Assembly: GCA_964358085.1 (NCBI GenBank)
Contig: CAYHNU010000003.1
Span: forward strand, 1 to 39,952
Direction of reading: 5' to 3'
From: an uncultured Gammaproteobacteria bacterium
GTDB lineage: Bacteria; Patescibacteriota; Microgenomatia; CAZETR01; Amesbacteraceae
Length of the DNA: 39,952 nucleotides
Shown: positions 8,787-33,532 of the stretch, one piece after another
How the letters are laid out: every line of letters begins with the position of its first letter
Position numbering within the stretch: the first letter of the stretch is position 1
Position numbers and translations under genes: made by a program
Notes under the pieces: generated by a model
What the model saw: only the letters and a program-made list of their open reading frames with translations
Database searches by the model: none
Told to the model about the DNA's origin: nothing

Positions 8787-10374
8787 ATTCTGGAATTTAG
8801 GGACACTCCCCAACGGCCTGCATTGGGACGAAATGGATACCGGCTACCAGGCCTATTCACTTTTTAGAACAGGCAAGGATTACTTTAGTAATCCTCTGCC
8901 TATGTTCCCCCATTCTTTCGCCGATTATCGCACTCCTATTTTCATCTATTCAGCCGTGCCCTTTGTAGCTTCTCTTGGACTATCTGCCGTTTCCGTTCGT
9001 CTGGTGGCCGCCGTCTGGGGACTGCTGGGTATTGTCCTGATATACATTTTGGTACGTGATTGGCTGGCTCCGCTGATTTTGGCTCTCTCACCCTGGCACC
9101 TGCAATATTCCCGTAAATCCGTAGAGACCATGAGTTTAACCACCACTTTTCTTTTAGGTTTGGTTTGTTTCCAACGCGGTCTTCGGCAACCGCGATGGCT
9201 GATTTTTTCTGCTCTCGGTTTTGGTCTTGCCATGACAGCCTATTCTCCCGGCAAACTCTTTGTGCCTTTATTTCTAGTCATCCTAATCTTCATAAATCGT
9301 AAATCATTAGTCCTGATTCAGCGTAAATATTTACTTACATCGGTCTTAGTATTAGCAGCTTTTGGACTTTTAGTTTTTGGAGACGCCATATTTGGAAAAT
9401 CCGGTACCCGCTTCCACGATGTAGCCATTTTCACCGACCCCACCATTTCCACAGAAATTAATTATCAGCGCCAGCTATCTGCCGAATCTTCAGGCCGGCC
9501 CCGCACGGTGGGCATGAGTCCCAGCTTGTTCGATAAACTATTGCACAACAAGCCCCAAGTCTGGATCGCCTCTTTTCTTACTAATTACCTGCGTACTTGG
9601 GGAACTGATTTTCTCTTTATCAAAGGCGATCCCGAACCTCGCCACTCGCCATCCCGCGATTCCATCGGCATGCTGCACATGATCGAAATCGTGCCATTCC
9701 TCGTCGGTCTTTTTGTTCTACTAAAAACCAATAACCAACTAACCAGGCTACTAGGAGCATGGCTGCTTCTTGCTCCAATTCCGTCGGCCTTAACCCGCGA
9801 TGGCGGAGTTCACGCCGCCCGCCTGCTTATTCTCTTCCCCGCCCTGGCCTGGACCATCACTCTCGGTCTCCGCCGGTTTTCCCGTCCGCTATTAACTATT
9901 TACTATTTACTATTTACTATCTCCAGTTTCTATATTTTTGGTTATTATTTCAGCCACTACCGTTTCGAAAGCGCCAAACCCTACCAGTGGGGTTATTCCG
10001 ATTTGATCAAAACCGCCCTGTCCAGGGAAGGCCAATACGACCGGGTAATTATCGACGTGGCCCGCGATTCACCTCTCATGGCCTATTTATTCGTGACCAA
10101 ATTTTCTCCCCGCCGACTTCAGGCCCTCTATCCGCTTCGGGAGCAAATTCTGACAGGGGATAGCCGGGCCTTAGTTTTTGGCAAAATCTGGCTTCTTCAG
10201 CCAGGTGGTCGTGAATGGGTGAACATCACCCTTCCCGGCCGCAATCTGATTCTAGCCTCCGCCGATCAATCTCAACTGGACCGCATTCCCGGCGCTACTC
10301 GTATCAACTATCCCGACTCTCTCGCCGCCTTCTACGTCTTCGAAAAATCCTCACCAGTTGCAATTAGTAAGTGA
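8725..10374 (+). CDS. ArnT/PMT-like (GT-C) membrane glycosyltransferase
   Basis: [34 protein letters not shown], many hydrophobic segments. Confidence 0.8.
9895..9920 (+). repeat. In-frame heptamer array (ACTATTT)x3 + ACTAT
   Basis: Encodes TIYYLLFTI within a predicted TM segment. Confidence 0.85.
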
Positions 10375-15472: not shown

Positions 15473-15883
15473 ATGCCCAATAAACTCTTCGGGACCAACG
15501 GTATCCGTGGTCCGGCTGACACTCTATTCACCAAGCAATTTTGTGTAAAACTGGGAGCAACTTTTGGCTCCTGGCTCAAATCCAAAGGTAAAGAAGGGTA
15601 TGTAGCCATCGCTTGTGATCCACGAGCTTCCAGTCCCTTCATCAAACGTCATATTATCCAAGGATTGGCTTCCCAAGGCTGGGAGATTTTAGACGAAGGT
15701 GTTGTTCCCACACCCGCCCTAACTTACTTTGTAAAACAATCTCCGGCGGTCGGCGGGGGAGTCATGGTCACCGGCAGCCACATTGCCGAAGGCCTAAACG
15801 GCGTCAAGTTATTTATTGATGGTGAGGAGGTCACCAAAGCCCATGAACTGGAAATCGAGCAGCAGTTCAACTCCGATAATTAA
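15473..15883 (+). CDS. Phosphohexomutase (PMM/PGM/GlmM) domain I, separated from remainder by a frame change
   Basis: KLFGTNGIRG, DPRASS, VPTPAL, VTGSH (phospho-Ser loop), NGVKLF. Confidence 0.85.
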   Translation: MPNKLFGTNGIRGPADTLFTKQFCVKLGATFGSWLKSKGKEGYVAIACDPRASSPFIKRHIIQGLASQGWEILDEGVVPTPALTYFVKQSPAVGGGVMVTGSHIAEGLNGVKLFIDGEEVTKAHELEIEQQFNSDN

Positions 15884-17807
15884 GTACGAAAACACCGCCA
15901 AAGAACTATATATAGAGATGTTAAAAAAATTGGCGAATACTCCATATCCAAAATGGAAAATAATTACCGACACCGCCAATGGTACCCAAACCCAAATTAT
16001 CAAAGACTTGCTCTTAGACCTAAAACTGGACTTTATCTGCACCGGCGATTGTGATATTCAATCACCGGAATTTATTCCCCGGGACACCGAAGCCCCCGGG
16101 GCCTTCGCCGAACTGGCCCGTCAGGTACTGCTCCAAAAAGCCGATCTGGGCTTCGGGTTCGACGTAGATGGGGACCGGATAATTTTTATAGATAATCAAG
16201 GTCGGTATCTTCCCGGCGATTATTCTTGTAGTTTAATTGCCCAAAGTGAAAAATCCAAAAACGTCGTCACCCCCATTAGTACCAGCTCGGTTATTGATTC
16301 AATTGGTAAAACTGTTCACCGCACTCCCGTCGGAGCGACACACGTGATCTCGAAAATGAAAGAGGTCGGTGCCGCATACGGTTTTGAACCCAACGGTGGA
16401 GGCATAAGCTCCGAAATCTTTTACGGCCGCGACGGCGGCACGACTTTAATCAAAATGCTCAATTTACTAAAAAAAAGCAAAAAAACATTGGCCGAGCTGT
16501 ACGACTCATTACCTAAATATTATTTATTCAGGGATAAAATTGATTGTCCGTTTGATAAATACGACTTCATTTATAACACCGTTCGTGAGAAATACTCCCA
16601 AATAAATGATCTGGACGGCATAAAAGTAGATTTAGGTCACGAAGAATGGATTTTATTTAGAGGGTCTGGTAATGCTCCCGAATTCCGGGTTTTTGTCCAA
16701 AGCCCGGACGAAAAACGGGCCCAAAAGTTAGGCCGGGAGGGACTTGATTTAGTCAGGAGTTTATTGAATGGGGTCCGACCCCATGCAACGGTCCAAAGAC
16801 TAGACACCTTAAATATTCTGGGATCAATCCAAGCCCTGCCGGATCAATGTGCCCAGGTCATCTCTGAAATAGCCCAAGCTTCAGTCCCTCCCAGCTGCAA
16901 TCTAGTAAACAATATTATTATTTCCGGAATGGGCGGTTCAGCCTTGGGTGGCCGGGTCATAGCAAGTCTGGAACGTCAAACTCTGCGGGTTCCCATCACA
17001 GTTTCTACTGAATATCACTTACCAAATTTTGCCAACGAAAAAACTCTGGTAATTATCTCCAGTTATTCAGGGGAAACAGAAGAAACCTTGACCGCTCTAG
17101 CCGAAGCCCGTTCCCGTGGATGTCAAATTTTCGTGCTTACTACAGGGGGAAAATTAGGCGAGTTGGCCAAACAATTTAGCCTTCCGCACTATCTTTTGAA
17201 CCCCCAACACAATCCTTCCCGGCAACCGCGTATGAGTTTAGGCTACGAAGTTACGGCCATGTTGGTCCTTTTGGCCCGTTGCCAGCTTATTCACCCCTTA
17301 AAAGAACTTTCCCGTCTTCCCAATTTTCTTCGATCTCGTCAGCCAGATTTATCTAGCATCCAGCATTTAGCATCTAGTCTCGTCGGTAAAATCCCCGTCA
17401 TAATAGTGAGCGAACATCTCAAAGGAGCCGTCCACGCCATGAAAAACCAACTCAATGAAAACGCCAAAACTTTTGCTGTGGTTTTCGATTTGCCCGAAGC
17501 CAATCACCATTTAATGGAAGGGCTGGCTCATCCGCCCTCCAATCCCGAAAATTTAGCGGTTGTTCTGGTCGACTCGCCCCACTATCATCCCGAAGTCCGC
17601 AAGCGCTACCCGCTTACCCGAAAAATTATTGAAAAACACCATATCCCCATCTTCGATTTTCCTCTGGCTGGCCCCAACCCGGTTTTCGAAGCTTTAGACG
17701 TGATTCAATCCGGCGCGTACCTGGCATATTACTTGTCCCAAGAATACGGCATTGACCCCGGCCCCATTCCTTGGGTAGACTGGTTTAAGGATGAACTCCG
17801 AAATTAA
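15816..17807 (+). CDS. Phosphohexomutase domains II-IV fused to bifunctional PGI/PMI (SIS)
   Basis: DTANG, FDVDGDRI, GFEPNGG, FRGSGNAPEFRV; then SGMGGSALGG, SYSGETEET, NENAK, PEANHH. Real start uncertain. Confidence 0.85.
   Translation: MMVRRSPKPMNWKSSSSSTPIIKYENTAKELYIEMLKKLANTPYPKWKIITDTANGTQTQIIKDLLLDLKLDFICTGDCDIQSPEFIPRDTEAPGAFAELARQVLLQKADLGFGFDVDGDRIIFIDNQGRYLPGDYSCSLIAQSEKSKNVVTPISTSSVIDSIGKTVHRTPVGATHVISKMKEVGAAYGFEPNGGGISSEIFYGRDGGTTLIKMLNLLKKSKKTLAELYDSLPKYYLFRDKIDCPFDKYDFIYNTVREKYSQINDLDGIKVDLGHEEWILFRGSGNAPEFRVFVQSPDEKRAQKLGREGLDLVRSLLNGVRPHATVQRLDTLNILGSIQALPDQCAQVISEIAQASVPPSCNLVNNIIISGMGGSALGGRVIASLERQTLRVPITVSTEYHLPNFANEKTLVIISSYSGETEETLTALAEARSRGCQIFVLTTGGKLGELAKQFSLPHYLLNPQHNPSRQPRMSLGYEVTAMLVLLARCQLIHPLKELSRLPNFLRSRQPDLSSIQHLASSLVGKIPVIIVSEHLKGAVHAMKNQLNENAKTFAVVFDLPEANHHLMEGLAHPPSNPENLAVVLVDSPHYHPEVRKRYPLTRKIIEKHHIPIFDFPLAGPNPVFEALDVIQSGAYLAYYLSQEYGIDPGPIPWVDWFKDELRN
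16764..16788. repeat. REP-like palindrome at the PMM/PGI domain junction
   Basis: ttg-a-atggggtc-c-gaccccat-g-caa, translated as LNGVRPHA. Confidence 0.65.
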
Positions 17808-17835
17808 CCTAATTTCTAATTAACCTAATTAATCT
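17802..17835. repeat. 9-mer array, left arm of inverted repeat around four-helix gene
   Basis: aattaacct aatttct aattaacct aattaatct. Confidence 0.8.
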
Positions 17836-17840
17836 AAATA

Positions 17841-18230
17841 ATGACTGAATATAATCTGGAAGAAAGAACAGCAAAATTCGGCGAGAACGTTATTCTTTTT
17901 TGCAATCGATTACCCAGGAACGAAGTGACAAAGCCACTTATCACTCAACTAGTCAAGGCAGCTACCAGTGTAGGAGCTAATTACGGCGAGGCAGACGACG
18001 CTGAAAGTCGTGACGACTTTAAGCATAAAATCGGAATTAGCAAGAAAGAAGCCAGAGAATCAAAACACTTTTTGCGGATGATTGCCACAGCTCTACCAGA
18101 ATTCAAAAATGAAGCAAGGATACTTTGGAGTGAAGCTAAAGAATTAAATCTGATATTTAATGCAATTTACAAAAAGGTCGGGTCTAAGAAAATTGGTCAT
18201 TCCTTAGACCAATTAGGTCAATTAGAATAA
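17841..18230 (+). CDS. Four helix bundle protein (23S rRNA IVP / bAvd-like family)
   Basis: LEERT..F, QLVKAATSVGANYGEA, S..DFKHKIGISKKEARES.HFL, EAKELNLIF. Confidence 0.9.
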   Translation: MTEYNLEERTAKFGENVILFCNRLPRNEVTKPLITQLVKAATSVGANYGEADDAESRDDFKHKIGISKKEARESKHFLRMIATALPEFKNEARILWSEAKELNLIFNAIYKKVGSKKIGHSLDQLGQLE

Positions 18231-18241
18231 TTAGGTCAATT
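18211..18241. repeat. 9-mer array, right arm (inverted)
   Basis: aattaggtc aattagaat aattaggtc aatt; reverse complement closely matches 17802-17830. Confidence 0.8.
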
Positions 18242-20500
18242 ATGCAATATATCAAATGGTTTAAGGATTTATCCAAAGAGGATATCGCCATCGCTGGCGG
18301 TAAGGGAGCGAATTTAGGCGAGCTGACCCAGGCCGGCATTCCCGTTCCACCCGGTTTCGTCGTCTTATCTTCGGCTTACTATAAATTCCTGGAAGACAAC
18401 AAACTCCGTCCCCAAATCCACCGTATTTTAGCCACTTGTGATGTTCTGGATCCGGCCCAGCTGGAACCCGCTGCCAAAAAAATTCAAAAGCTCATGGCCG
18501 CCGCCACCGTACCCGCAGAAGTAGCCCGAGACATATTTAAATCTTACGCCAAGCTCGGTTCCAAGTCCGCCGTGGCGGTCCGCTCTTCCGCCACTGCCGA
18601 GGATTTGCCGGAAGCCTCCTTTGCCGGTCAACAAGAATCGTATCTAAATGTCATCGGCGATGCCAACGTAGTAACCAAAGTCAAGGCCTGTTGGATTTCC
18701 CTTTTCGGTGCCCGGAGTATTTTTTACCGGGCCCAGCAGAAATTCGACCATTTCAAGGTCGGTATCGCCGTTCCGGTGCAAACCATGATCCAGTCCGAAA
18801 TTTCCGGCATCATTTTTACCGTTGACCCCATATCCGGTGACCGGGACAAAATCATTATCGAAGCCATTTGGGGATTAGGGGACTATATTGTCCAGGGAGT
18901 AGTCACTCCCGATCATTTTTCCGTGTCCCGCGCCACCAACAAAATCGTTGACAAAAATATTTCTACCCAGGAAATTATGGAAATCAGAAACCACCAAGGA
19001 GTTAAACAAGTCAAGGTCCCATCCCGTTTGCGCTCCGTTCAAAAAATTTCCGACGCTTCAGTTATTAAGCTGGCAGAATACGGCCAAAAAATTCATCAAC
19101 ACTATTTCTTTCCCCAAGATATCGAATGGGCTATCGCCAAAGGAAAGATTTATTTCACTCAATCCCGCCCCATAACCACACTATCGAATAAAACCGTTAC
19201 CGAATCACCGAACACCGAACACCGAGAACCGATATTGAAAGGCGCCCCTGCATCACCAGGTATTATTTCCGGCCCAGTCAAAATAATTTTAGATATTAAA
19301 AATATCGGCCAGGTCAAAAAGGGCGACATTATGGTTACAGACATGACCACTCCGGATTTCGTCCCCGCCATGAAGCGGGCCGCCGGAATCATTACTAATC
19401 GCGGCGGACTTACATCTCACGCTGCCATCGTTTCCCGCGAATTGGGTGTTCCTTGCATAGTCGGTACTACCGTGGCCACCCACACTCTCAAAGACGGTCA
19501 AATTGTCACTCTCAACGGTTCCACCGGCGAAATTTTCAAAGGCGCCCTCCATCTTCCTTCCGTCTCTCTGACCGCTCCGCAATCCGAAAACCGACTTCCG
19601 ACTAACCTGAAGACTGCAACCAAGCTTTACGTCAATCTCGCCGAAACAGAATTAGCAGATAAAATCGCTTCCGAAAACGTGGACGGTGTAGGTTTATTAA
19701 GGGCTGAATTTATGATCGCCGGCATAGGCACCCACCCCAAGAAGCTCATCGCCGACAAAAAAGAAGAGGAATTTGTTTCCAAGTTGACGGAGGGTCTGGT
19801 CACTTTTTGCCGCGCCTTCCATCCCCGTCCCGTCATTTATCGGGCTACTGATTTCAAAACCAATGAATACAGGTCACTTAAGGGCGGCCAGCTCTACGAA
19901 CCCGAAGAATCCAACCCTATGCTCGGATTCCGCGGCGCTTACCGCTACATCACCCACCCCGAAGTTTTTCAGCTGGAATTAGAAGCCATCAAGCGGGTGA
20001 GAAACCGTCACAAACTCACTAATTTGCATCTTATGATTCCCTTCGTCCATACTCCGGCGGAAATGTTAGAGGTCAAAAAACAAGTCACAGCTTCCGGTCT
20101 AATCCGCGGCAATTCCTTCAAGTTATGGATGATGGTCGAAATTCCCAGCAACGTCATTCTCTTGGACGAATTTATAGACGTAGGCATTGACGGCGTGTCT
20201 ATCGGTAGTAACGATCTCACAATGCTCATTATGGGAGTCGACAGGGATAATTCGGAAGTAGCTCCGGTTTTCGATGAGCGCAATCCCGCCGTCCTTTGGG
20301 CTTTGGAAAAAATTATCAAAACTTGTCTGAAACGCAACATCACTTGCGGTATCTGCGGCCAAGCTCCCTCCCAATACCCGGACCTAGTCGAAAAGTTAGT
20401 TTCCTGGGGCATCACCAGCATCTCCGTTAACCCCGACGCTATTGCTCGCACCCGGGAACTTGTTTACAATAGTGAATTAAGATATGTCCGCCAAGCTTAA
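18242..20500 (+). CDS. ppsA: Phosphoenolpyruvate synthase
   Basis: GGKGANLGEL, VAVRSSATAEDL..ASFAGQQ, GGLTSHAAIVSRELG, GVGLLRAEF, SIGSNDLT. Confidence 0.96.
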   Translation: MQYIKWFKDLSKEDIAIAGGKGANLGELTQAGIPVPPGFVVLSSAYYKFLEDNKLRPQIHRILATCDVLDPAQLEPAAKKIQKLMAAATVPAEVARDIFKSYAKLGSKSAVAVRSSATAEDLPEASFAGQQESYLNVIGDANVVTKVKACWISLFGARSIFYRAQQKFDHFKVGIAVPVQTMIQSEISGIIFTVDPISGDRDKIIIEAIWGLGDYIVQGVVTPDHFSVSRATNKIVDKNISTQEIMEIRNHQGVKQVKVPSRLRSVQKISDASVIKLAEYGQKIHQHYFFPQDIEWAIAKGKIYFTQSRPITTLSNKTVTESPNTEHREPILKGAPASPGIISGPVKIILDIKNIGQVKKGDIMVTDMTTPDFVPAMKRAAGIITNRGGLTSHAAIVSRELGVPCIVGTTVATHTLKDGQIVTLNGSTGEIFKGALHLPSVSLTAPQSENRLPTNLKTATKLYVNLAETELADKIASENVDGVGLLRAEFMIAGIGTHPKKLIADKKEEEFVSKLTEGLVTFCRAFHPRPVIYRATDFKTNEYRSLKGGQLYEPEESNPMLGFRGAYRYITHPEVFQLELEAIKRVRNRHKLTNLHLMIPFVHTPAEMLEVKKQVTASGLIRGNSFKLWMMVEIPSNVILLDEFIDVGIDGVSIGSNDLTMLIMGVDRDNSEVAPVFDERNPAVLWALEKIIKTCLKRNITCGICGQAPSQYPDLVEKLVSWGITSISVNPDAIARTRELVYNSELRYVRQA
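19193..19234 (+). repeat. In-frame ACCGAAC-type heptamer array in PpsA linker
   Basis: accgtt accgaatc accgaac accgaac accgaga accgata (TVTESPNTEHREP). Confidence 0.8.
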
Positions 20501-24029: not shown

Positions 24030-24686
24030 ATGCAATTTCTTAAATTTCTCATTGATTTCATTTTGCACATCGATGTTCACCTGGGGGAGTTGATTACCAC
24101 CTACGGAATCCTGACTTACGCGATTTTATTCGTAATAATTTTTATTGAAACCGGTTTGGTTTTCATCCCCTTTCTACCTGGCGATAGCCTGCTTTTCGCC
24201 GCCGGCACATTCTCCGCCATCGGCTCTCTCAATCCTTGGCTCGTTTTTCTACTCCTATCTTTAGCCGCCGTCCTTGGTGATACAGTCAATTACTGGATTG
24301 GCCATTTTTTCGGTCAAAAGATCTTAAACAACCCAAAAATTCCTATAAACCAGGAACACGTAGACAAAACTAATCAATTCTTTGCCAAACATGGGGGCAA
24401 AACAATATTTTTGGCCAGATTCGTTCCCATCATCCGCACCTTTGCTCCATTCGTAGCCGGAATCGGAAAAATGGACTATTCAAAATTTATTTTCTACAAC
24501 ATCTTTGGCGGCATCGTCTGGGTGGGATTATTCACTTTTGCCGGTTATTTCTTTGGCAATGTTTCATTCGTAAAGCACAACTTTTCTCTGGTCATTCTCG
24601 CCATCATCATTCTCTCAATCGTCCCCATGCTCCTCCACTTTCTCCAAAACCTCAAGAAAAGCCCTTCCACCCCTGGGGTGGAATAG
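24030..24686 (+). CDS. dedA: DedA family membrane protein
   Basis: IFIETGLV..PFLPGDSLLFAAG, LGDTVNYWIG, ARFVPIIRTFAPFVAG. Confidence 0.93.
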   Translation: MQFLKFLIDFILHIDVHLGELITTYGILTYAILFVIIFIETGLVFIPFLPGDSLLFAAGTFSAIGSLNPWLVFLLLSLAAVLGDTVNYWIGHFFGQKILNNPKIPINQEHVDKTNQFFAKHGGKTIFLARFVPIIRTFAPFVAGIGKMDYSKFIFYNIFGGIVWVGLFTFAGYFFGNVSFVKHNFSLVILAIIILSIVPMLLHFLQNLKKSPSTPGVE

Positions 24687-24699
24687 GTTCGCTACCTCT
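24665..24699. repeat. REP-containing left end of RAYT element
   Basis: ttccacccc-t-ggggtggaa + 7 nt + gctacctct. Confidence 0.85.
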
Positions 24700-24714
24700 G
24701 GTATTATAAATCTT

Positions 24715-25389
24715 GTGGCCAGTAGAACCACTCCCCTAGTAACTAACGAGTATTACCATGTCTTTAATCGCGGAGTTGCTCGCCAGCCTATCTTTTCCCT
24801 ACGACATGATTACCAACAAGCCCTTCTCGCAATTGAATATTACCGTTTTTCAAAACCTCCTATCAAACTGTCACGCTTCAAAACTCTAGCTCAAGGCGAA
24901 AAAAATAAATTAATGTCTTCCTTAAATCAGGACCACCCCAAATTAACAAAAATTATTAGCTACTGCTTCATGCCTAATCATTTTCACCTGTTGCTTCGTC
25001 AAGTTGCCGACGACGGTATTTCAAAATTTGTTGGGCAACTTAGCAATAGCTATACACGCTATTTCAATACCAAGCATTCTCGCGTCGGTCCGCTGTTTCA
25101 AGGACCATTTAAATCTGTTCATGTCGAATCTGAAGAACAACTAATACATTTATCCAGGTATATTCATTTAAATCCCTATGTTTCTTCAGTAGTTCGAGAG
25201 ACTGAATTAACCTGCTATCCCTGGTCATCCTATCGGGATTATCTCAAGGGCGGCTCGAATTTCGTAGATTTGTCGCCAGTATTGTCTCGTTTTAAATCAA
25301 TATCCGAATATCAATTATTTGTTTCCAATCATGCAGATTACGCCCGTGAGTTAGAATTCATCAAACACCTCACCCTAGATACCGGCTAA
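24715..25389 (+). mobile_element. REP-associated tyrosine transposase (RAYT, Y1 HUH)
   Basis: YYHVFNRG, YCFMPNHFHLLL (HUH), GPLFQGPF, RYIHLNP, YPWSSY; flanked by REP palindromes. Confidence 0.9.
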
Positions 25390-25393
25390 AGTT

Positions 25394-25428
25394 AGAGGTG
25401 GCATATCTTTTCCACCCCAGGGGTGGAA
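25394..25428. repeat. REP-containing right end of RAYT element (inverted)
   Basis: agaggtggc + 7 nt + ttccacccc-a-ggggtggaa. Confidence 0.85.
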
Positions 25429-26395: not shown

Positions 26396-28348
26396 ATGTT
26401 TAAACTCAAATCTCCATACAAACCGACTGGCGATCAACCGGATGCAATTAAAAAATTGTTAGCTGGGCCAGACCAGCAAGTTTTGCTGGGAGTAACTGGC
26501 AGTGGGAAAACATTTACTATAGCTAATGTCATACAAAAAGTTCAGAAGCCAACTTTAGTTATCTCGCACAACAAGACTTTGGCCGCCCAACTATACCAGG
26601 AATTCAGGGATTATTTTCCGGATAACGCCGTATCCTATTTCGTTTCCTATTACGATTATTATCAGCCAGAAGCCTACATTCCCCAATCCGATACCTATAT
26701 CGAAAAGGAAACAGACATCAACGACCAGATAGACATGCTCCGTTTGGCCGCGACCACCAATTTATTGACCAGAAAAGACGTCATCGTCGTGGCTTCTGTT
26801 TCATGCATCTACAATCTCGGTTCTCCGGCCGAGTACGGTAAGACTATCTTAGAGCTCACCCCCGGTCTTAAAGTAACCCGGGACCAGATCTTCATGCGCT
26901 TAAACGACCTCCAATATTCCCGCTCCGATTACGGCTTTCATCGGGGCACCTACCGCGTCCGCGGCGAAACTATCGACATTTTTCCCGCATATGCAGATGT
27001 CGCCATCAGAGTCGCCCATGACAGTCATAAAATTATCAGCCTGGACAGGTTCGATGCCCTGACAGGCGATCTGATTAGCCACGAAAAAAATATAACCGTT
27101 TATCCGGCTAAACATTATTTGGCAGCCAAAGATAATCAAGCAGAAGTCTTTAAGCAAATCCGCCACGATCTGGAACTTCAGGTGTCTAAGTTTAAATCCG
27201 AGGGAAAAATGCTCGAGGCTCACAGAATTAATCAGCGGGTTAATTACGACCTAGAAATGATAGCTGAGCTGGGTTACGTCAACGGTATTGAAAACTATTC
27301 CCGCTATTTCGATGGCCGCCAAATCGGTGACCCGCCATATTCTTTGATGGATTATTTTCCCAAAGATTACCTGTTAATAGTTGATGAGTCACACATGACC
27401 ATCCCGCAGATCCGCGGGATGTATAACGGCGACCGCTCTAGGAAGCAAACCCTCATAGATTACGGGTTCAGACTGCCGGCCGCTCTGGACAATCGACCGC
27501 TCAAGTTTGACGAATTCATGCGTCGTACAGGCCGGACTATATACTTATCTGCCACTCCGGACGAATGGGAAATTTCTCAATCCGGTAATCACGTCGTAGA
27601 ACAGCTTATCCGCCCCACCGGCCTCGTCGACCCCTCCATTTCTATTCGTTCAACTTCCGGTCAAATTCAAGATCTAATTTCTAATCTCCAATCTCTAATT
27701 TCCAAAGGCCAGCGAGCTCTGGTAACTACTCTCACCAAACGCATGGCCGAGGATTTATCTAGCTACTTGGCCGAACAAGGATACAAAGTCCATTATCTGC
27801 ATTCCGACGTGGATACTCTGGAACGCCTGGATATCTTAGATGATCTGCGCAGGGGTATTTATGACGTCATCGTAGGCATTAATTTGCTGCGTGAAGGTCT
27901 GGATCTACCGGAAGTTTCCCTAGTCGCCATTTTAGACGCCGACAAAGAAGGCTTTTTGAGATCCCGCACTTCACTTATTCAAACCATGGGTCGGGCCGCC
28001 CGGCACGAAGAGGGCCAGGTTATCATGTACGCAGACAAAATTACCAATTCCATGCAAGCTGCCATAGATGAAGTCAGCCGCCGCCGCCAGATCCAGCTAA
28101 ATTACAATACACTACACAACATCACCCCTAAATCCATAACCAAAGCCATCCGTGAGCGTATTGTGGAAAAAGAAATCGAACCTCCAAACATCGACATGTC
28201 CAAAGTCAATCAGCTTACTCCCGAAGATCACACCAAACTTATCAAGCTTATGACAAAACAAATGAACTCCGCCGCCAAAGCCCTGGAATTCGAAGAAGCC
28301 GCCCGTCTCCGCAACCGCATCCGCGAAATCCAACACCTATTAAATTAA
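26396..28348 (+). CDS. uvrB: Excinuclease ABC subunit B
   Basis: PTGDQP, LLGVTGSGKT, YFVSYYDYYQPEAY, DESH, GINLLREGLDLPEV, FEEAARLR; start at MFKLKS. Confidence 0.98.
   Translation: MFKLKSPYKPTGDQPDAIKKLLAGPDQQVLLGVTGSGKTFTIANVIQKVQKPTLVISHNKTLAAQLYQEFRDYFPDNAVSYFVSYYDYYQPEAYIPQSDTYIEKETDINDQIDMLRLAATTNLLTRKDVIVVASVSCIYNLGSPAEYGKTILELTPGLKVTRDQIFMRLNDLQYSRSDYGFHRGTYRVRGETIDIFPAYADVAIRVAHDSHKIISLDRFDALTGDLISHEKNITVYPAKHYLAAKDNQAEVFKQIRHDLELQVSKFKSEGKMLEAHRINQRVNYDLEMIAELGYVNGIENYSRYFDGRQIGDPPYSLMDYFPKDYLLIVDESHMTIPQIRGMYNGDRSRKQTLIDYGFRLPAALDNRPLKFDEFMRRTGRTIYLSATPDEWEISQSGNHVVEQLIRPTGLVDPSISIRSTSGQIQDLISNLQSLISKGQRALVTTLTKRMAEDLSSYLAEQGYKVHYLHSDVDTLERLDILDDLRRGIYDVIVGINLLREGLDLPEVSLVAILDADKEGFLRSRTSLIQTMGRAARHEEGQVIMYADKITNSMQAAIDEVSRRRQIQLNYNTLHNITPKSITKAIRERIVEKEIEPPNIDMSKVNQLTPEDHTKLIKLMTKQMNSAAKALEFEEAARLRNRIREIQHLLN
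27673..27707 (+). repeat. In-frame TCTAATY-type heptamer array in uvrB
   Basis: tctaatt tctaatc tccaatc tctaatt tccaaag (LISNLQSLISK). Confidence 0.85.
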
Positions 28349-31864: not shown

Positions 31865-33532
31865 ATGACCAAAAAAATATTAGTATTTATTGGTATTTAT
31901 TGGTATCTATTCCCGAGTCCGGCCTCAGCCTCGGGAGAATTCTACATCAAACAAAATGTTGATTATAAATTCGACGCGTTGGGCCGCTCCACTATTACCT
32001 TCAATGTATCCCTAACCAACAAAACGGCTAACTACTACGCTTCCAAGTACGAACTAGAACTAGTAGGGGAGGACCCCAAAAATGTTACCGGGCGCGACTC
32101 AGTCGGCCCTCTTAAAATTATCACCTCTCCCACTGCCGCAGATACTACCCGTATTGTGGCCAACTTTAACGATGTGGTCGCGGGCCCCGGAAAATCTTTA
32201 TCTTTTACTCTCCAATATCAGGGCAAACCTGCCGTGCACAATGGCCAAGTTTGGGAAATAAACCTCCCCAAGCTTTCCCGTCCTGCGACCGTAGACGAAT
32301 ACACTCTGAACCTGATTGTTCCGCTCTCCTTTGGTCAACCGGCTTATTTATCTCCTCCTCCCGCGTCTTCTGACGGCAACAGATATGTTTTCACCAAAGA
32401 CCAACTTTCCAAGGTGGGGGTGGTGGCCGCTTTTGGAAATTTTCAAACTTTTTCTTTCCGCCTCAAATATAAAATCAACACCCCTTCTCAAATTGCGTTA
32501 CCCGCTGATACCGCCTATCAAAGAATTTTTTTTGATTCAATCACCCCTTTACCTAATTCCGTTACCGCTGACGCCGACGGCAACTGGCTAGCCGGTTTCA
32601 ATCCCGGTGAAATTGTCGTCACCGGCCAGGCAAATCTGCTGTTAGAACCTCTTTCGTCATTTACTGACTCACCTCCGGAAAAATATCTTTTCCCCACAGC
32701 TTACTGGCCGGCCGACAATCCGCAAATTAAAGAGCTGGCTAAGTCCTTAAAAACTCCCCGGAAAATTTACGATTACGTAGTGGAAAACCTTGAATACGAT
32801 TACGCCTCCGCCGCGTCCCTCACTGCCACCCGCAAAGGCGCTCTCGCCGCTCTTTCTTCCGGCTTAGGCGTCTGCACCGAATTCACCGACCTGTTTATTG
32901 CCCTGGCCCGGGCCGCCGGCATCCCTGCCCGTGAGGTAAATGGCTATGGCTATACTACGGACCTGCGTTTGCGCACCCCCCTCCACTCTTGGCCCCAATA
33001 CTGGGATGCTACCCGCCAGGTTTGGGTCAGTGTCGATCCCACCTGGAGCCGCACCACTGGAGGGATAGACTATTTCTCCAAATTAGATTTTAACCACCTG
33101 TCCTTTGTCACCCACGGCTTGTCCGATTCTTTACCCGATTTCTCCGCTACTGATATTCAAGTCAGTTACGGATCGTACCACGAGTACCCCGCTACACCTC
33201 TTATTACTAAATGGCAATCGCCCTTATTTATTCTTCCGTTTATTCCCAGCACCTTCCGTTTGCGAATCACCAACCCCAACCCTCAAGCTGTCTATTCCAA
33301 CCCCGTAACACTACCTCCCTATGGATCAAAGGTCCTGACAGTCCGGTACACTCTTATCCGTCCTTTTGATTTTAGTCCCAAATCCGTAACCCTCATAAAT
33401 ATGACGTATAATATCCCCACGACTTTATTTCTTCCCTGGCAAATCGGCTTTGCTATCCTTATCTCACTTACCCTTATCGCCGGGAGTCTATATCTTCAAA
33501 AACGCTTCCGGCCAGGTTCTATACGTCGGTAA
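31865..33532 (+). CDS. Exported/membrane-anchored transglutaminase-like protein
   Basis: GVCTEF..LFIALARAAGIPAR.V.GY, HSW, DPTW (Cys-His-Asp); signal peptide and C-terminal TM. Confidence 0.88.
   Translation: MTKKILVFIGIYWYLFPSPASASGEFYIKQNVDYKFDALGRSTITFNVSLTNKTANYYASKYELELVGEDPKNVTGRDSVGPLKIITSPTAADTTRIVANFNDVVAGPGKSLSFTLQYQGKPAVHNGQVWEINLPKLSRPATVDEYTLNLIVPLSFGQPAYLSPPPASSDGNRYVFTKDQLSKVGVVAAFGNFQTFSFRLKYKINTPSQIALPADTAYQRIFFDSITPLPNSVTADADGNWLAGFNPGEIVVTGQANLLLEPLSSFTDSPPEKYLFPTAYWPADNPQIKELAKSLKTPRKIYDYVVENLEYDYASAASLTATRKGALAALSSGLGVCTEFTDLFIALARAAGIPAREVNGYGYTTDLRLRTPLHSWPQYWDATRQVWVSVDPTWSRTTGGIDYFSKLDFNHLSFVTHGLSDSLPDFSATDIQVSYGSYHEYPATPLITKWQSPLFILPFIPSTFRLRITNPNPQAVYSNPVTLPPYGSKVLTVRYTLIRPFDFSPKSVTLINMTYNIPTTLFLPWQIGFAILISLTLIAGSLYLQKRFRPGSIRR

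Follow-up and report, generated by a model that had tools for sequence, protein, structure and literature searches.

In the window, by which we mean the whole 39,952-nt stretch of DNA analysed, sequence inspection delimits a discrete 440-base cassette within a glycolytic operon, made up of a left arm, a four-helix-bundle gene and an inverted right arm (Table 1). The cassette takes up the whole intergenic space between pgi and ppsA and lies on the same strand as the operon. The left arm reads AATTAACCTAATTTCTAATTAACCTAATT over 17802–17830 and has a period of 9 with 4.8 copies by a tandem-repeat measure, and the reverse complement of 18211–18241 reads AATTGACCTAATTATTCTAATTGACCTAATT; complementarity between the arms extends inwards to 17845 and 18196 (32 nt at 84%; 46 aligned columns). 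Stop codons are present in all three frames of the left arm, the last codon and stop of pgi (AAT TAA, 17802–17807, with TAA at 17805–17807) lie inside its first unit, and the start codon of the cassette gene is part of its inner end, in the innermost unit. At the other end, the ppsA ATG at 18242 directly follows the last base of the right arm, which has AGG 8 nt 5′ of this ATG and is without a stop in the ppsA frame. The right arm also encodes the end of the cargo ORF (...HSLDQLGQLE*), residues 114–129 being a 16-residue tail read from the arm; three paralogues stop about 16 residues earlier than this protein. A sequence-only reading of this DNA had described a four-helix-bundle gene within inverted arrays of a 9-base word in a glycolytic operon, with arms spanning the gaps to the PGI stop and the ppsA ATG and a right arm coding the QLGQLE* tail; the sequence of 17802–18241 agrees with this description throughout, as do the profile matches with the gene assignment. 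The ppsA product matches PPDK_N, PEP-utilizers and PEP-utilizers_C in Pfam. No convincing promoter or terminator was found inside the cassette in a scan of 17000–19000, where the best matches were 9 of 12. Both cassette junctions are bridged by contigs of four groundwater runs, some of which may be the source sample.

Table 1 Features of the pgi/ppsA junction and its cassette.
Feature	Position	Strand	Basis or composition
Upstream host gene (pgi)	15816..17807	+	Pfam: phosphoglucomutase II/III + SIS + bacterial PGI C-terminal domain
Segment ATGAACTCCGAAATTAA of the former pgi/ppsA overlap, left copy	17791..17807	+	Comparison with empty sites
Left arm	17802..17845	+	Five CTAATTnnn units, 7–9 nt each
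Cargo gene, 129 aa, four-helix-bundle protein (23S rRNA IVS protein / TIGR02436 family)	17841..18230	+	
Right arm	18196..18241	+	Left array in inverted form, with AATTAG-type units
Segment ATGCAATATATCAAA = MQYIK of the former overlap, right copy, today the ppsA start	18242..18256	+	
Downstream host gene ppsA (PEP synthase / pyruvate, water dikinase family)	18242..20500	+	

The cargo protein matches both PF05635 (42.7 bits, cut-off 33.8) and TIGR02436 (61.9 bits, cut-off 24), and its AlphaFold2 model (pLDDT 90.8) consists of four long helices. With this model, Foldseek retrieved BT_0352 (2rld; TM 0.88, rmsd 1.7) and XCC0516 (2gsc; TM 0.84), and a sequence search with the protein reached 2rld at E = 2e-19. 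Since 2rld and 2gsc contain five chains each, the cargo protein may by analogy form a homopentameric ring; a pentameric family structure is credited to Lin et al. 2006 in PMC4990558. Identity to the orthologue in G019, a genome of another genus, is 88, 89 and 60% at codon positions 1, 2 and 3, a pattern that shows purifying selection on the protein. The PF05635/TIGR02436 family is large, its small proteins have solved structures, and we know of no function for them outside diversity-generating retroelements (DGRs); to our knowledge no catalytic activity is known for the four-helix bundle.

Comparison of filled and empty junctions shows the cassette at pgi/ppsA to be an insertion. In all three same-genus genomes (G011, G012 and G013), pgi and ppsA overlap without a cassette, the empty site reading ...AAGaATGAGTTACGTTAAGTGG... 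and the congener PGI ending in ...DWFKNELR* within ppsA codons 1–5. About 11–15 nt of this former overlap segment are present on both sides of the cassette, the left copy today coding only the PGI tail DELRN*. A 12-nt direct repeat, TGGTTTAAGGAT (17781 and 18257), was considered as a target duplication and rejected because the empty sites already contain it, coding WFK in each of the two proteins, and no target duplication is evident at the P2, C17 and P3 sites, which are the three other readable filled/empty pairs. Four other cassettes of the genome have empty sites in relatives too. Empty sites in three of three congeners uphold the earlier suggestion of a minimal mobile cassette without a transposase, present in some relatives and absent from others, and neither stable synteny without repeats nor paralogues lacking arrays, which would have spoken against it, was found: the junction is variable and all paralogues are array-flanked.

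Among family genomes in which pgi and ppsA were found adjacent, the junction is also filled only in G019 and G022. G019 has the same cassette at the same junction, with an 86% identical IVP (the TIGR02436 protein), and this other filled allele has the derived ppsA Q2 in common with the genome studied here. G022 has a different, decayed IVP cassette there, with an N-truncated IVP and arms of 7-mers, and two different IVP subfamilies are accordingly found at one junction. Third-codon-position identity between our genome and G019 is 60% for the IVP and 44.7% for ppsA, for which the value against a congener is 62.3%. The G019 copy of the cassette is thus less diverged than the genes that flank it, which points to a lateral origin, and we infer that transfer into this one conserved junction accounts for at least part of its spread between genomes.

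The arms stand out from background. A 13-mer, AATTRACCTAATT, occurs four times in the window with at most one mismatch, always within the arms, against an expectation of 0.32, and four copies were attained in none of 100 shuffles. The flank inverted-repeat score of the cassette ORF (24.5) is the highest among the 582 ORFs of 80–200 aa in the genome (median 7, 99th percentile 18.1). The computed arm-to-arm RNA duplex has −33.6 kcal/mol versus −5.9 ± 2.3 for 500 right-arm shuffles (z = −12), and folding predicts paired arms in both the minimum-free-energy and the centroid structure; the arms are therefore predicted to pair in the operon mRNA. In the arms of this genome and G019 it is the constant part of the units that pairs, while the variable triplets match poorly. 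Across loci, the best partner of a left arm among 74 right arms was its own in 16 cases, and its own ranked within the top tenth in 42. Of the arm mismatches at 68 loci, 110 were G·U on the sense strand, 136 A·C and 432 of other kinds; with G·U not in excess, they gave no sign of selection for RNA pairing. A profile search finds an RNase III gene in the genome (211 bits, cut-off 166).

Inverted periodic arms flank all five TIGR02436 genes of the genome and its single GxxExxY gene, and each paralogue has its own arm word. Beyond this genome, 61 of 78 homologous loci from many phyla have an inverted-array score of at least 15 (80 of 549 confirmed homologous stretches were retrieved), as do 31 of 40 further loci of the family; in 4 of those 40 the arrays are direct repeats, not inverted. 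At 67 loci the upstream neighbour was co-oriented with the cassette gene in 42 cases, opposite in 1 and ambiguous in 24, with corresponding counts of 41, 3 and 23 for the downstream neighbour, and the stop of the upstream gene lay −31 to +34 nt from the arm edge in 57 of 66 loci; these homologues take up the full gap between their neighbours. Protein subfamilies differ in their word, and loci differ in how many units an arm has. CTAAT is repeated in 40 and AATGA in 24 of 74 loci across phyla; the cassette proteins are only 56–77% identical over the same range. This conservation of the arm word across phyla suggests that the word is recognized by its sequence and does not serve for pairing alone. 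Arms of this kind also enclose GxxExxY, which we take to be a nuclease-like family of the PD-(D/E)XK type, in three of three cases, with similar, AAT-centred words and without an IVP gene. Metagenome contigs also contain gene-less miniature forms, in which a left-type array is joined to a right-type array 1–25 nt away, and arm depth is 20–50 times ORF depth. A homologous cassette is present in Luteolibacter marinus NBU1238 (locus L079), whose record is titled as a strain, not a MAG. A search of the main texts of openly accessible articles found no paper on operon-borne IVP or GxxExxY cassettes whose arms are repeat arrays, and the pgi/ppsA cassette seems to be one copy of a widespread mobile cassette that is apparently undescribed.

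About 24 solo arrays of the CTAATTnnn word lie elsewhere in the genome and cannot form a stem of the cassette type. Two such sites were compared with congeners: the one at the rpsE–rplO junction looks as if a native junction rich in stops had expanded locally by 19 nt, and the ‘array’ inside prfB is native coding sequence conserved in congeners, which means that array-pattern matches overcount elements. The cassette gene had also been proposed as a partner or source of the arrays in neighbouring genes, a claim for which we found no support: the arrays at 17351–17377 and 19199–19232 use other words than the cassette arms, the ppsA array sits in a length-variable linker, and array-pattern matches bear no relation to IVP gene number in 27 family genomes (16 matches and no IVP gene in G001; no matches and 11 IVP genes in G017). 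Arrays as promoters for leaderless mRNAs were likewise rejected, TTGACC being too near the ATG at C17:6603 and C12:13492 as judged by eye.

Several known systems invite comparison. In PMC4990558 and PMC11270868, ORF-bearing rRNA intervening sequences (IVSs) are described from Coxiella burnetii and Leptospira, together with CPR rRNA insertions that carry 23S_rRNA_IVP ORFs, and the Coxiella IVS is given as 428–444 nt with a 28-bp terminal stem, an S23p ORF and an RNase III cut (PMC4990558). Compared with these, the cassette is alike in size (440 nt here), in its cargo protein family, in complementary termini that would form a long stem around the ORF, in the absence of a transposase and in a patchy, laterally inherited distribution (PMC4990558, PMC11270868). 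It differs in lying between two protein-coding operon genes rather than in a 23S or 16S rRNA helix, in arms that are arrays of 7–9-nt words (about 45 nt, ~80% complementary), and in that these arms supply a stop codon and adjoin a start codon. No rRNA was found in 17 related loci that were unscorable or lacked an upstream ORF, and no LSU rRNA was found in the assembly. Like MITEs, the cassettes are short, bounded by inverted repeats, without their own transposase and present or absent at orthologous sites, with gene-less miniature forms in the community; unlike MITEs, they have a conserved gene under purifying selection, arm sequences that vary among the paralogues of one genome, target duplication in only one of four comparisons and strict co-orientation with host operons. 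Free-standing homing endonuclease genes, as in phage intronless homing, are similarly small selfish genes wedged between conserved genes, and the pgi/ppsA junction, occupied in remote genomes but vacant in near relatives, shares with them a hint of raised flank similarity beside the insert (over the final 76 nt of pgi, identity is 96.7% with G019 and 92–93% with congeners). However, the four-helix-bundle cargo has no known nuclease activity, although the GxxExxY cargo may have one, and we know of no homing endonuclease genes with repeat-array arms.

The fold common to IVS proteins and Avd, invoked in the sequence-only reading, is borne out by the structural matches (4dwl at TM 0.76 and rmsd 2.6, beside 2rld at TM 0.88), and the cargo therefore resembles the bAvd protein of DGRs in its four-helix bundle; it differs in having no sequence-level match to bAvd, and no template or variable repeat accompanies it. 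A DGR remnant was rejected because the genome has no reverse transcriptase (no RVT_1 match at 92% completeness); the neighbours are glycolytic genes. REP/RAYT systems share intergenic palindromic DNA in operons, and the genome has five Y1 transposase genes, one of them in the window, but this RAYT-like gene is flanked by GC-rich hairpins (TTCCACCCCTGGGGTGGAA) that bear no relation to the words of the arms.

The explanation that we favour, with a probability of roughly 0.55, is that an IVS-like, horizontally spreading mini-cassette, a promoterless gene between inverted arrays, entered the operon where the pgi stop and the ppsA start once overlapped and is tolerated in the operon RNA. Such a cassette would be selfish and passively carried, and transcribed only as part of the operon RNA; its left arm gives pgi a stop codon and its right arm adjoins the ppsA ATG. 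In the operon RNA the two arms would form an imperfect stem, about 38 base pairs long, with the IVP start codon enclosed in it and with the stop of pgi and the start of ppsA drawn together at its base. By analogy with rRNA IVSs the stem would be a likely RNase III substrate; alternatively, termination and reinitiation may proceed across its base, and either route would cost the host operon little. The stop codons of the arm and the predicted arm-to-arm stem would together make the insertion tolerable. Set against this explanation are the solo arrays, which cannot form a stem, the four family loci with direct arrays, a target duplication seen at pgi/ppsA only, the location outside an rRNA gene, the missing G·U excess, the poorly pairing triplets and the conservation of the arm word across phyla.

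Alternatively, the arms may act on DNA, as arrays of binding sites at which a protein, from the cargo or supplied in trans, excises and inserts the unit, the RNA stem being a by-product. Tn7- and Mu-type transposons and MITEs have ends with multiple binding sites, and presence or absence at orthologous sites, an overlap segment on both sides of the insertion as from a staggered cut, a word conserved across phyla despite divergent proteins, gene-less miniature forms with a high arm depth, an unrelated GxxExxY cargo in similar arms and the five Y1 (IS200/RAYT-like) transposase genes can all be read in this way. We nevertheless regard action on DNA as a possibility on the unlikely side, because the cassette has no transposase and its four-helix bundle no known catalytic activity, because paralogues that each have a different arm word would oblige a single trans-acting enzyme to read many words, and because the RAYT-like gene in the window has quite different flanking hairpins; moreover, the duplication is absent at three of four filled/empty pairs, and a DNA transposon would not need to share the orientation of its host genes so strongly (42 to 1). 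A broader proposal, which we hold to be distinctly speculative, makes the word arrays, not the gene, the core of an unrecognised mobile system of compact bacterial genomes. Its words (CTAATTnnn, GAATGAC and others) would occur as solo junction arrays, in-frame gene inserts, hairpins and inverted pairs around a cargo gene. The cargo protein, a pentameric four-helix bundle or the nuclease-like GxxExxY, would recognize its own word and bring about copying or excision with no classical transposase, and rRNA IVSs would be the landing site noticed first.

The arrays might instead be an RNA operator, in which a pentameric ring binds four to six left-arm words, much as TRAP binds triplet repeats, competes with the stem and so regulates both how its own mRNA is translated and how the flanking genes are coupled. 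Five chains in the family structures, about five units per arm, a start codon within the innermost unit and the stem, and a separate word for each protein subfamily are consistent with such a role, which we nonetheless find improbable: GxxExxY cassettes have similar AAT-centred words and no IVP gene, G001 combines 16 pattern matches with no IVP gene, units per arm vary, and simple co-inheritance would likewise tie protein clade to word. Finally, there may be nothing mobile here, only a resident small gene lost in relatives, at AT-rich junctions expanded by replication slippage. The local expansion at rpsE–rplO and the coding nature of the prfB ‘array’ lean this way, but arm words and protein subfamily stay together over many phyla, divergence is lower in the cassette than in the genes of its host operon, two IVP subfamilies occupy one junction, and left arms find their own right arms in 16 of 74 loci and within the top tenth in 42; we disfavour such a resident origin and consider it very improbable. 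An IVS-like cassette tolerated in operon RNA is the reading that we retain.

The origin and mobility of rRNA IVSs have been open since about 1990, with hypotheses reviewed in PMC4990558, and the question is now testable because a homologous cassette is present in the Luteolibacter marinus NBU1238 record. The pgi/ppsA locus provides a clean filled/empty comparison in which a unit of IVS type is found in protein-coding operons as well, with arms whose make-up leaves each host gene its stop or start codon, with the same junction re-occupied in different lineages and with a second, nuclease-like cargo family on the same chassis. If the arms do insulate the host operon, they would represent a natural, portable way to place a gene between translationally coupled genes.

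Judged from the alleles of relatives, the cassette at 17802-18241 is an insertion between pgi, here a PGM/SIS/PGI fusion gene, and ppsA. The sequence-only reading had taken it for a possible mobile cassette and had pointed to the pgi-ppsA junctions of relatives and to the flanks of paralogues as informative. Among ppsA loci from 26 further genomes of the family (small genomes, ~0.6-1.1 Mb), the junction is empty in each of the three congeners (G011, G012 and G013; PpsA 88-91% identical), where pgi and ppsA overlap without a cassette (...TGGTTTAAGaATGAGTTACGTTAAGTGG...) and PGI ends KNELR* within ppsA codons 1-5. The junction is short or overlapping wherever else in the family both genes were found adjacent. 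It is filled in G019, a genome of another genus (PpsA 77% identical) with the same cassette in the same layout and an IVP (23S rRNA intervening-sequence protein) 86% identical, and in G022, where a different IVP (35% identical), truncated at its N-terminus, lies between 7-mer arms. Filled alleles carry the former overlap segment on both sides of the cassette, as expected from a target duplication of ~11-15 nt at a staggered cut, and the duplicated overlap is the sole way for both pgi and ppsA to survive insertion here. A 12-nt direct repeat, TGGTTTAAGGAT, was rejected as part of the event because the empty sites already carry it.

Features in the window and elsewhere in the genome under study (contigs with C numbers)
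Feature	Position	Strand	Remarks
PGM/SIS/PGI fusion	15816-17807	+	profile matches
Left copy of overlap segment	17791-17807	+	retains PGI tail DELRN*
IVP ORF	17841-18230	+	129 aa; PF05635 42.7 bits (cut-off 33.8), TIGR02436 61.9 bits (cut-off 24)
ppsA	18242-20500	+	profile matches
Right copy of overlap segment	18242-18256	+	retains MQYIK
Enolase, then phosphoglycerate mutase	further neighbours	+	profile matches
RAYT/IS200-like Y1 transposase gene	24715-25389		224 aa, HFHLL motif; in 24665-25428 unit
Inverted 35-nt repeats flanking Y1 gene	24665-24699, 25394-25428		each holds palindrome TTCCACCCCTGGGGTGGAA
Other tandem arrays, 7-10-nt units	1671-1704, 9889-9920, 17351-17377, 19199-19232, 27673-27705, 31878-31911		words unrelated to cassette arms
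GxxExxY cassette (TIGR04256)	C40:2055-2462 (locus L165); also loci L163, L164		10-nt AAC[GT]AAT-type arms
Solo-array contigs	C1, C2, C4-C6, C8-C10, C12, C13, C17, C25, C26, C29, C30, C35, C39, C45, C49, C52, C61
PaaX/Cas2-like small genes	C15:613-1191, C9:4295-4840		non-periodic inverted repeats of 35-38 nt on either side of each

The inverted arrays that the sequence-only reading described around the IVP gene agree with the sequence: the left arm starts as AATTAACCTAATTTCTAATTAACCTAATT (17802-17830), the reverse complement of 18211-18241 is AATTGACCTAATTATTCTAATTGACCTAATT, and complementarity extends inward to 17845 and 18196 (32 nt at 84%; 46 aligned columns in a second alignment). Both arms are tandem arrays of period 9. 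With up to one mismatch allowed, the window has four copies of the 13-mer AATTRACCTAATT, always within the arms (expected, 0.32), and the arm inverted repeat is well beyond chance, with a flank score for the IVP ORF of 24.5 at the top of 582 ORFs of 80-200 aa genome-wide (median 7, 99th percentile 18.1). The computed arm-to-arm RNA duplex is -33.6 kcal/mol versus -5.9 +/- 2.3 for shuffles, and when 17780-18270 is folded both minimum-free-energy and centroid structures pair the arms (z = -2.0 over the whole 491 nt). The left arm is stop-rich, with stop codons in all three frames and the PGI gene stop (17805-17807) inside its first unit; the right arm abuts the ppsA ATG, which directly follows its last base, and has no stop in the ppsA frame and an AGG 8 nt 5' of that ATG.

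The neighbours of the IVP gene are glycolytic genes, on the same strand throughout, and a scan of the cassette for promoters and + strand terminators gave nothing convincing. Phosphoglucomutase domain I lies in a separate ORF (15473-15883) overlapping the start of the fusion ORF, in which domains II-III are joined to SIS/PGI; this split may reflect a frameshift or a mis-set start of mechanical ORF calling. The AlphaFold2 model of the IVP (25 homologues, pLDDT 90.8) shows four long helices plus a tail modelled with low confidence. Foldseek superposes it on BT_0352 (2rld, TM 0.88) and XCC0516 (2gsc), both also found by sequence search, and matches Bordetella phage Avd (4dwl) more weakly (TM 0.76, E = 0.19); Avd was not among the sequence-search matches. 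Residues 114-129, which have no counterpart in three paralogues, are the right arm translated in frame.

The same design recurs. Profile searches of the genome under study found five genes above cut-off for TIGR02436 and one for TIGR04256 (GxxExxY, a PD-(D/E)XK-type family), and collecting their flanks showed inverted periodic arrays around all six, each with its own word. Four of the five other cassettes (the four exclude the C9 pseudogene) are absent from at least one close relative, with 10-75 nt in place, and their empty sites are tight stop/start junctions too (TGATG; TAG-C-ATG). Three of the order's 28 genomes carry GxxExxY genes, always within repeat-array arms; the cassette on C40 is absent from G011, G013 and G019, and the same site is filled in G015. 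The junction after the GAPDH gene (C17:4044-4400 in the genome under study; also loci L173, L181 and L125) holds IVP cassettes in that genome, G019, G005 and G004 and is empty in G013; by these alleles it is a second recurrent landing site.

A homologue scan with one genome per species gave 594 candidate stretches and 549 confirmed relatives, the best 80 of which were fetched. By record title these 80 come from Patescibacteria, Planctomycetota, Verrucomicrobiota, Omnitrophota, Acidobacteria, Nitrospirae and others, with proteins 56-77% identical to the IVP studied here; the inverted-repeat score reaches at least 15 in 61 of 78 scorable loci (median 20.75 versus 10 for mismatched partners). Median element length is 480 nt. 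Arm words fall into two dialects: AT-rich genomes have CTAAT(T)nnn (repeated in 40/74 loci), GC-rich genomes GAATGAC (AATGA repeated, 24/74). One homologous cassette (61% identity, GAATGAC-type arms, inverted-repeat score 33.5) lies in Luteolibacter marinus NBU1238 (L079, NZ_JACZFQ010000040.1), titled as a strain and not as a MAG. A further 40 IVP loci of the family score at least 15 in 31 cases; their non-coding flanks alone are inverted in 22, direct in 4 and below threshold in 14.

Cassettes of this design are embedded in operons. Of 67 loci, 42 have a co-oriented upstream neighbour and 1 an oppositely oriented one, with 24 ambiguous; the corresponding counts for the downstream neighbour are 41, 3 and 23. 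A long co-oriented ORF stops -31 to +34 nt from the left arm's outer edge in 57 of 66 loci (filter: stop no farther than 40 nt 5' of the arm). Past the right arm, the downstream frame mostly has its first ATG after 0-37 nt. None of the 17 loci lacking such an upstream ORF or unscorable lies in an rRNA gene; one sits between tRNA genes.

Identity at codon positions 1/2/3 between the genome under study and G019 is 88/89/60% for the IVP gene (130 codons), a pattern that shows purifying selection on the protein, and 78/89/45% for ppsA; ppsA against congener G013 gives 91/96/62%. The position-3 difference between IVP and ppsA, ~three standard errors over 130 codons, suggests that the cassette post-dates the split from G019 and reached this same junction by transfer once the lineages had parted. 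Over its last 76 nt, pgi is 96.7% identical to G019 versus 92-93% to congeners, only a hint of co-conversion with the cassette since this stretch is conserved in all compared genomes.

About 24 solo arrays of CTAATTnnn, the word of the cassette arms, lie elsewhere in the genome, with 3-5 units each; the sole inverted partner within 900 nt of any of them is a borderline one (score 17) at C9:10870. Some 12 are directly 5' of start codons of co-oriented genes (for example rplO, rpsD and transketolase), which there have no Shine-Dalgarno spacer, and ~9 lie inside long open frames in opposite sense. One of these, the array at C1:17968-17998 (locus L207, 769-799), on the other strand of a membrane glycosyltransferase-like gene, is an in-frame insertion of ~54 nt (…SLGQLEIRSIRN…) absent from all three congeners, and the rpsE-rplO junction array is ~19 nt longer than the homologous G013 junction; a prfB array was rejected as an inserted element, being ordinary coding sequence. 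Among other repeats, the window array within ppsA (19199-19232) falls in a linker of variable length among relatives, and the flank scores of both PaaX/Cas2-like genes are among the genome's top. A palindromic repeat of ~60-90 nt (locus L002, 1122-1217; C11:13199-13294) matches dozens of sites on both strands in G011 and G019; it is missing at the same site in G013 and so looks like a separate MITE-like family.

Wobble, word-conservation, direct-array, solo-array and metagenome data speak against an RNA-level role alone for the arms. Sense-strand arm mismatches over 68 loci comprise 110 G·U versus 136 A·C and 432 others, with no G·U excess, and pairing is carried mainly by the constant part of each unit. 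Proteins from different phyla are only ~60% identical and yet the word is conserved, suggesting that it is read by something. Only in 16 of 74 loci does a left arm pair best with its own right arm (which ranks in the top tenth in 42), some IVP subfamilies have direct rather than inverted arrays, and array-pattern matches within the family (0-38 per genome) do not track IVP gene number. In four groundwater metagenome runs arm depth is 20-50 times ORF depth, and in many contigs just 1-25 nt separate a left-type array from a right-type one; these are hairpins without a gene, from other loci or other organisms. These facts keep alive two rivals: the arrays may act at the DNA level as protein-binding ends, or the cargo protein may bind its own arm. 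As to enzymes, the genome, which is 92% complete, has no reverse transcriptase, and its five Y1 transposase genes, one of them in the window, have flanking hairpins unrelated to the arm words.

The anatomy of the cassette matches that of ORF-bearing intervening sequences (IVSs), and by this analogy it is probably an element of the IVS kind; those lie within rRNA genes, whereas this one is in an mRNA setting. The Coxiella IVS is described as 428-444 nt with a 28-bp terminal stem and an S23p ORF, excised by RNase III, its mobility long suspected and never explained (PMC4990558), and IVP ORFs are also reported from insertions of CPR 16S and 23S genes (PMC11270868). If the pgi-ppsA cassette works as such an element, the operon transcript would include it; we infer that its arms would then fold into a stem of ~38 base pairs that would sequester the IVP start codon and set the pgi stop beside the ppsA start, coupling the two genes. 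Such a stem would be a plausible substrate for cleavage by RNase III, the gene for which is present. Our literature search, with most subscription journals outside its reach, found no description of IVP or GxxExxY genes as repeat-armed operon cassettes. The locus offers an overlapping junction with clean empty and filled alleles, the overlap segment in duplicate, one junction re-occupied by two IVP subfamilies, a case for lateral transfer from divergence, a wobble test without signal and a solo-array census, and the cassette would add an IVS-type element outside rRNA, with a second cargo family, GxxExxY, in the same genome.
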